This document shows, one piece after another, positions 15,537-15,746 of a DNA stretch of 19,443 nt (positions within the stretch are counted from its first letter, which is position 1; each line of letters opens with the position of its first letter). The notes under the pieces were generated by a model. The model searched no databases, was not told the origin of the DNA, and saw nothing but the letters and a program-made list of their open reading frames with translations. Source of the stretch: Promethearchaeota archaeon Loki_b31 (lineage in GTDB: Archaea; Asgardarchaeota; Lokiarchaeia; Sigyniarchaeales; SOKP01); contig NJBI01000057.1 in assembly GCA_005222975.1 (NCBI GenBank), positions 1-19,443 of the forward strand, given 5' to 3'. The position numbers and the translations under genes are program-made.

Positions 15537-15746
15537 ATGAAGTTTACGAGCAATGTAAAATGTCCTTTTTGTGGACATCTAAACGAAGTTAAAATACCTG
15601 ATAAAATGTGAATTGTACGCCTGGAATGTCAAAACTGTAAGAAAATTATCACTGGGCACGAAAACCCTCACGGTTGAACCTGAGTAATTTGTACTTACGG
15701 TGATGTTCCTTGATTATTGGTTCAAAAACAAGAAGGTTTTACTTAA
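15537..15746 (+). CDS. Unannotated 69-aa selenoprotein of the GDCCVxC-like family with four Sec (UGA) codons
   Basis: Read-through translation: MKFTSNVKCPFCGHLNEVKIPDKMUIVRLECQNCKKIITGHENPHGUTUVICTYGDVPULLVQKQEGFT*. TGA at 15609, 15675, 15681 and 15711; TAA at 15744. Two CxxC motifs; the C-terminal GUTUVICTYGDVPU aligns by eye to the family pattern GDCCVxCSYGxVPC. A SECIS-like hairpin lies directly downstream. Confidence 0.9.

Follow-up and report, generated by a model that had tools for sequence, protein, structure and literature searches.

The window, that is, the whole stretch of 19,443 nucleotides analysed here (contig NJBI01000057.1 of Promethearchaeota archaeon Loki_b31, assembly GCA_005222975.1), contains on its forward strand an ATG-to-TAA frame of 69 sense codons plus the stop (Table 1). 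No TAA or TAG occurs inside it, and TGA is found at codons 25, 47, 49 and 59, as described in the first-pass annotation, whose translation is letter-for-letter identical to the one obtained here. With the four UGA codons read as selenocysteine (Sec, U) the predicted product has a mass of 7.6 kDa. The ORF listing made with translation table 11 omits this frame. The genome has a GC content of 31.5%, at which a chance open frame of such length is not rare; the frame is taken to be beyond chance because of its homology to the NF041374 family and because the TGA codons are conserved in 23 of 23 aligned orthologues, both described below.

Table 1. Features at the locus of the predicted four-Sec protein (positions in the window; Sec residues as predicted)
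Feature	Position	Strand	Basis
Divergent class I SAM methyltransferase, weakly ArsM-/CpaM-like, below every cut-off	14579..15328	-	Profile matches; kept beside the gene in the closest relatives
CDS of the predicted 69-residue selenoprotein, stop TAA at 15744-15746	15537..15746	+	NF041374 match, orthologues
Zinc-ribbon part, C9-x2-C12 ... C31-x2-C34, Cys in every orthologue	15561..15638	+	Weak Pfam ribbon matches, invariant columns, structure model
UGA, predicted Sec25, the Cys of the family 'MPxxAC' motif	15609..15611	+	TGA in 23/23 orthologues, family alignment
UGA, predicted Sec47, the earlier U of HG-U-x-U, which corresponds to GD-CC in the family	15675..15677	+	TGA in 23/23, family alignment
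UGA, predicted Sec49, second Cys of the family CC pair	15681..15683	+	TGA in 23/23, family alignment
UGA, predicted Sec59, the Cys of 'VPCPP'; codon ends 53 nt upstream of the SECIS AUGA	15711..15713	+	TGA in 23/23, family alignment
Complete 3'UTR element with its A/U lower stem 15753-62/15822-31 around the SECIS and the 3' hairpin	15753..15831	+	Minimum-free-energy fold; covariance-model match 15759-15824, 80 bits
Predicted SECIS core and upper helix: AUGA 15767-70, helix 15771-80/15790-99, A-rich apical loop from 15781, GA 15800-01	15767..15801	+	Covariation, covariance model
Second small hairpin CGAGA...UCUCG just 3' of the SECIS GA, conserved and covarying	15804..15819	+	3'UTR alignment

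TGA serves as an ordinary stop in the same genome. Nearby it ends the ORFs 13677-14564 (+), 14579-15328 (-) and 16821-17318 (-), and genome-wide it is the terminator of 154 of the 1434 ORFs of at least 300 amino acids. In public protein sets the orthologues are present only as mistranslations in which TGA is read as Trp, derived from ENA contigs of 500-800 bp. Two earlier statements, that the TGA codons are recoded locally rather than through a change of the code and that standard gene callers overlook the gene, are borne out by these counts, and the case shows how annotation pipelines drop or mistranslate such genes in Asgard metagenome-assembled genomes.

Two other genes of the window deserve mention. 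A TnpB/OrfB_IS605-type gene (10699-11907, +) lies 3.6 kb upstream, and its position fits the patchy, accessory distribution of the locus. The ORF 16821-17318 (-), of 165 residues and ending in TGA, aligns with roughly the first quarter, and no more, of a profile for pyruvate formate-lyase-like (glycyl radical) proteins; it may represent a fragment of a gene or one with read-through.

With U read as C, the 69-residue product matched the profile NF041374, GDCCVxC (seleno)protein, from its first to its last position (58 in all; E 1.9e-13). The score of 50.4 bits exceeds the curated cut-off of 40, and the locus was recovered with 36.9 bits when the genome was searched with stops left unscored. The match to Pfam was limited to weak zinc-ribbon hits. 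A word-index protein search with the product gave a single match and an exhaustive profile search gave 1008 relatives, typically of the pattern CPxCGH...MPxxAC...ECxxC...GDCCVFCSYGxVPCPPxQ. The nine cysteine columns of the family (CxxC, AC, CxxC, CC, VxC and PC) are all filled, by C9, C12, U25, C31, C34, U47, U49, C52 and U59, and the nine are invariant as Cys/Sec in 23 orthologues. In more than 1000 homologues the Sec columns are Cys and not Trp. The placement of U47 is ambiguous by one residue: it stands in the D column or, given a gap, on the first C of the CC motif. The clade has H-G-U-x-U-V-x-C where the literal family motif is G-D-C-C-V-x-C, and it has three more residues in the spacer that follows the second CxxC; from the alignment, HG-U-x-U-V-x-C is a clade-specific variant of the GDCCVxC motif, and the four predicted Sec together with Cys52 take the place of the five family cysteines outside the zinc ribbon. 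Membership in the GDCCVxC family had been proposed beforehand from this pattern and agrees with the profile score; the placement of U25, U49 and U59 on family cysteines was correct, and that of U47 within the motif holds with a possible shift of one position.

The search for orthologues covered first the order of the host (151 genomes) and then the phylum (400 genomes). Orthologues were identified in 27 genomes from two families of the order, with four in-frame TGA every time; the additional TGA seen in a few rows are terminal stops. This is a patchy distribution (27 of about 150 genomes) in an order where most members use Sec, and synteny with the neighbours of the window is kept only in the nearest relatives. 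A total of 23 of the 27 could be aligned without gaps over a core block that opens with the first Cys and closes four residues after the last Sec. In this block TGA is present in 23 of 23 sequences at each of the four columns, at nucleotide identities of 50-98% (median 64%). The dN/dS ratio was estimated for three segments: 0.27 for the part upstream of the first TGA, 0.23 for the stretch from there to the second TGA and 0.20 for the remainder, with synonymous sites near saturation. A pseudogene or a product of 24 residues does not fit the conserved TGA and these ratios.

Canonical all-Cys GDCCVFC genes without SECIS were found in other Asgard families (f13, f16 and f18), and no form with one, two or three Sec appeared among the 400 genomes of the phylum. 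Two family members with a single TGA were considered as Sec intermediates and rejected, their TGA being ordinary stop codons. The first-pass annotation had pointed to selection past the first TGA and to exchange between TGA and Cys codons as marks of a selenoprotein. Selection is seen downstream (dN/dS about 0.2); of the exchange, only the all-Cys end is found, in other Asgard lineages, and no intermediates.

The predicted SECIS starts 20 nt past the TAA stop and has a 10-bp helix whose apical loop opens with AAAA. Across an alignment of 21 3'UTRs the AUGA never varies, 80.9% of cells pair against 38-47% when the partners are slid by 1-3 columns, and 8 of the 10 pairs of the upper helix show compensatory changes on both sides. 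By these features the element is a eukaryote-like lokiSECIS (eSECIS-like, type I) that matches the description given for Lokiarchaeota (PMC4989117, PMC11227280). A covariance model built only from the 3'UTRs of the four-Sec orthologues gave three matches with E < 1e-3 over the 3.5 Mb genome: the SECIS of the four-Sec gene (80 bits), the 3'UTR of a two-UGA gene of the VhuD/MvhD type (36 bits) and the 3'UTR of another UGA-UGA gene (50 bits). The same model left the divergent SECIS of the sister family f2 unscored; folding gives AUGA...GA hairpins in the loci L014, L024 and L026 and nothing convincing in L029. Overall, the AUGA...GA hairpin is found in 22 of 23 orthologues (L029 being the other one), 3-42 nt past the stop or, where UGA serves as the stop, overlapping with it. 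An Rfam scan of the window matched no SECIS family, which is uninformative because Rfam models miss the Loki type.

Between the end of the last Sec UGA and the AUGA downstream lie 36-53 nt, with a single exception of 75 nt. In 5 of 23 orthologues the terminal stop is itself UGA, located from 4 nt inside the SECIS core to 18 nt before it, a spacing that fits the published idea that a UGA too near the lokiSECIS terminates. The two sets of distances bracket the minimal distance at which a lokiSECIS can act. An extra hairpin 3' of the core GA, inside the lower stem, gives a three-way layout; it was observed in the window (15804-15819), in the SelD 3'UTRs on C34 and in the VhuD 3'UTR (C90:9311-9383). 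In the SelD 3'UTRs the three parts are arranged alike, and the apex there is of type II. No description of this hairpin was found in those portions of the SECIS literature that were consulted.

The machinery for Sec, on whose presence the earlier reading depended, is present. The genome has two SelD genes with one in-frame TGA each, SepSecS (475 bits), a PSTK-like kinase (E 9e-41) and an EFSec-like GTPase (227 bits) on the same contig as SepSecS; the PSTK-like and EFSec-like matches are strong yet below the cut-offs of models tuned to other lineages. A tRNA-Sec with anticodon UCA lies directly upstream of SepSecS (C59:31980-32132; L012:1267-1419, +). Its acceptor stem has 9 bp, its D stem 6 bp and its T stem 4 bp; the variable arm is long, and the T loop contains a 31-nt intron, as published for Lokiarchaeota (PMC4989117). 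There is an apparent second insertion in the D loop, with 39 nt between the D-stem strands, and folding of the precursor (153 nt, -62.6 kcal/mol) gives a 9/4 cloverleaf into which two hairpins are inserted. Because of these insertions its Rfam score is only 28 bits. Other candidates were rejected: an ARAGORN 'tRNA-SeC' with a 90-nt intron (C59:34501-34681) has a poor cloverleaf, and the UCA tRNA was preferred to it; three weak RF01852 matches are tRNA-Arg, tRNA-Gly and tRNA-Leu.

From the sequence evidence, 15537-15746 is very probably a real four-Sec selenoprotein gene, and we infer that all four UGA would be read as Sec by Sec-tRNA(Sec) and the EFSec-like factor, directed by the single lokiSECIS. 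It could be argued, as the case for a selenoprotein is built on sequence and some pipelines did translate the orthologues with TGA as Trp, that the frame is a decaying pseudogene, encodes a peptide of 24 residues, or has UGA read as Trp or Cys through a suppressor or a local code change. Such a reading is extremely improbable: the four TGA columns are complete in the 23 orthologues and followed by purifying dN/dS values, the SECIS covaries, the corresponding columns of the homologues hold Cys and not Trp, TGA ends ordinary genes, and the only UCA tRNA found is of the Sec type.

The AlphaFold2 model of the product (pLDDT 94.6) has a four-stranded ribbon followed by two short helices. Sequence and fold searches against the PDB returned generic zinc ribbons only (Z <= 3.7, E >= 0.15) and no structural lead to a function, and no HMA domain was matched in Pfam or NCBIfam at E <= 1, the model being a zinc ribbon plus helices. 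The protein would be composed of an N-terminal four-Cys zinc ribbon and a short helical part bearing a putative five-ligand cluster (Sec25, Sec47, Sec49, Cys52 and Sec59).

Mercury and arsenic genes occur in the neighbourhoods of a number of the orthologues. In 7 genomes, representing 4 genera, a merA gene follows immediately downstream in the same orientation. This MerA scored 534 bits with TIGR02053 against a cut-off of 454, scores higher with this equivalog than with the lipoamide dehydrogenase and glutathione reductase models, has a CVNVGC redox site and a C-terminal Cys-Cys, and begins right at the FAD fold, without an NmerA domain. An adjacent merB (PF03243) was identified in 2 genomes, between the two genes or after them, and an adjacent heavy-metal P1B ATPase with an HMA head in 4. 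In four genomes the gene is the last of a co-directional string formed by ACR3, ArsM or a fusion of CpaM-like and HgcA-like parts, and then one or two genes of the 'UU protein' described below; ArsM of the ACR3 string scored 357 bits against a cut-off of 263. At about 12 of the 27 loci no metal genes were found in the flanks read. In the genome of the window the best MerA match scored 332 bits, below the cut-off of 454, and the neighbour at the locus is a generic methyltransferase. No mer or ars genes were found beside the all-Cys homologues at 3 bacterial and 10 Asgard loci; the metal context is thus confined to the four-Sec clade, and its reading is not extended to the whole family.

The fusion just mentioned, a CpaM-like methyltransferase joined to an HgcA-like corrinoid protein, was observed within the ACR3/UU-protein/four-Sec string of two Asgard genomes (L058:3682-5328, -, and L052:2318-3919), with 172 bits against an HgcA cut-off of 275.

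The UU protein is a candidate selenoprotein of about 150-175 residues. Its vicinal pair of predicted Sec is invariant, in the settings G-C-U-U, A-D-U-U or U-G-U-U, and the gene usually has a lokiSECIS to itself. In the genome of the window it lies at C46:31906-32373 (+), with the SECIS at C46:32380-32445 (L044:1501-1566), and other copies are at L016:265-783 and 888-1355, L067:1900-2352 and L015:1004-1474, with two more in L058. It is present in 127 of the 151 genomes of the order, nearly always with 2-3 in-frame TGA, and stands directly upstream of the four-Sec gene in four genomes. In L015 and L051 it lacks a separate SECIS, and the four-Sec gene starts 11 nt past its stop codon, a layout in which the two genes probably share one SECIS. 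No Pfam or NCBIfam model matched it; its structure model (pLDDT 78) gave weak beta-grasp-like matches, including the beta domains of cobalamin carriers. From sequence features, it looks like a second selenoprotein family outside the published lists.

Since the four-Sec clade has these mer and ars neighbourhoods, the site of four Sec and one Cys is read as a soft-metal(loid) site serving those systems. The selenolate-rich site would bind ions such as Hg(II) or As(III), and the protein would scavenge them or hand them over to the resistance enzymes encoded beside it in the sister genomes, putatively the NmerA-less MerA, MerB, the P1B ATPase and ArsM with ACR3. It would be in this sense a trans-acting functional counterpart of NmerA, MerP or ArsD, the last of which binds As(III) through vicinal Cys pairs. 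Mercury-selenolate bonds are stronger than mercury-thiolate bonds, so that hand-over to the Cys pair of MerA would be uphill and the role of a sink is favoured over that of a chaperone. A role in binding Hg or As, as suggested by the neighbourhood, is slightly more probable than its opposite. Taken as a whole, a four-Sec GDCCVxC/GOS_B selenoprotein with one lokiSECIS and a soft-metal(loid) role is the best explanation of the locus, and we consider it reasonably probable. With less than even confidence, the four-Sec gene and the UU protein may be seen as two halves of an Asgard-specific, selenium-based metal(loid) defence module, in which the two would use selenolates to bind Hg(II) or As(III) or to transfer them, and would stand in for the missing NmerA of the archaeal MerA.

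Other functions have to be weighed against this one. The Sec/Cys cluster could cycle between selenol and selenylsulfide or diselenide and be the electron-accepting substrate of the adjacent 'MerA' flavoprotein, as thioredoxin is for thioredoxin reductase, with no part in metal handling. In its favour, redox functions predominate among selenoproteins (PMC13188914), the neighbouring protein is a member of the pyridine-nucleotide disulfide oxidoreductase superfamily with a CC redox pair at its C terminus, and U-x-U and vicinal Sec pairs are able to form diselenides. However, that neighbour clears the MerA equivalog cut-off and ranks above the lipoamide dehydrogenase and glutathione reductase models, and a pure redox role leaves MerB, the P1B ATPase, ACR3 and ArsM unexplained, so this alternative is unlikely. 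A sensor or regulatory partner, in which the zinc ribbon and the Sec site would detect Hg or As and control the adjacent genes, is suggested by the gene heading mer-like strings, by the frequent use of small zinc-ribbon proteins as regulators and by weak matches to the Brz, Com and Lar ribbons; the protein has only 69 residues, no DNA-binding domain and no match to a regulator fold, which makes this quite unlikely.

The first-pass annotation had left the choice between a protein that binds metal and one that stores or traffics selenium. The metal half is strengthened by the neighbourhood, and the selenium half gained nothing. A store or carrier comparable to selenoprotein P, holding or delivering selenium, would account for the very high density of Sec (4 in 69 residues), but the Sec sit exactly on the conserved ligand cysteines of a Cys family and not in a variable Sec-rich tail, genes for the Sec machinery were not seen at any locus read, and the protein is patchy in an order that mostly uses Sec; we regard it as very improbable. 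The soft-metal(loid) role gives the GOS_B family a first testable function through its mer/ars neighbourhood. Should the module exist, its members would be the first archaeal selenoproteins for metal detoxification rather than energy metabolism, and GOS_B, an orphan since 2008, would have its first function.

Among known systems, the closest is the family itself. GOS_B was found in ocean metagenomes as a bacterial selenoprotein with one Sec and no assigned function (PMC2398784; Table 1 of PMC13188914). The protein described here shares with NF041374/GOS_B (Zhang & Gladyshev 2008) the domain, the nine Cys/Sec columns, a length of about 60-100 residues and the occurrence of Sec in some members. 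The published members are bacterial and have one Sec, a bacterial SECIS inside the coding region and no proposed function, whereas the archaeal form has four predicted Sec, the HG-U-x-U-V-x-C motif, a spacer longer by three residues, a eukaryote-like SECIS in the 3'UTR and the mer/ars context.

The decoding signals resemble those of the Lokiarchaeota selenoproteins HdrA, VhuD and PrxL (PMC4989117; Huang et al. 2024, PMC11227280), with which the gene has in common the AUGA, the A-rich loop and the closing GA past the stop, one SECIS for several UGA, and the use of a SECIS-near UGA as stop; the 31-nt T-loop intron of tRNA-Sec is also common to this genome and the published Lokiarchaeota. In those organisms HdrA has up to four Sec, and one SECIS serves up to six UGA (Mariotti et al. 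2016, PMC4989117). The protein differs from that set in its family, in its density of Sec (four within 69 residues, where HdrA has at most four in about 660) and in a context that is not energy metabolism. Selenoprotein P is alike in having several Sec per chain decoded via a 3'UTR SECIS; it is a secreted eukaryotic protein with two SECIS and with Sec in a variable tail for selenium transport, in contrast to the single SECIS and the invariant ligand columns found here.

NmerA, MerP, the HMA-type 'UxxU metal-binding (seleno)protein' NF041115 and ArsD are small soft-metal modules encoded with merA or ars, a likeness to the four-Sec protein that would be one of function. There is no relation in sequence or fold, the protein being a zinc ribbon plus helices and not a ferredoxin-like HMA domain with GMTCxxC nor a thioredoxin-like ArsD. 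Bacterial HMA versions with two Sec exist (PMC13188914).

The surveys list seven Asgard and eleven archaeal selenoprotein families, nearly all found by homology and belonging to the metabolism of hydrogen, heterodisulfides and peroxides (PMC11227280, PMC13188914), and a review of 2026 (PMC13188914) assigns a single Sec to NF041374 and puts the maximum for prokaryotic selenoproteins at 2-3 Sec. In the literature examined, including PMC4989117, PMC11227280, PMC9723677 and PMC13188914, neither GDCCVxC as an archaeal or Asgard selenoprotein, nor a four-Sec member, nor a link to mer or ars was found; the earlier impression that the protein stands outside the known archaeal selenoproteins agrees with its absence from the lists of these four papers. 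Already known are the curation of the family as a (seleno)protein, the SECIS type, the Sec machinery, the multi-Sec proteins of Lokiarchaeota and the service of several UGA by one SECIS. What is new relative to the surveys examined is the archaeal four-Sec form of GDCCVxC and its mer/ars context: the gene adds a family that the published Asgard and archaeal surveys overlooked, and its four predicted Sec in 69 residues are the highest density found reported for a prokaryote.
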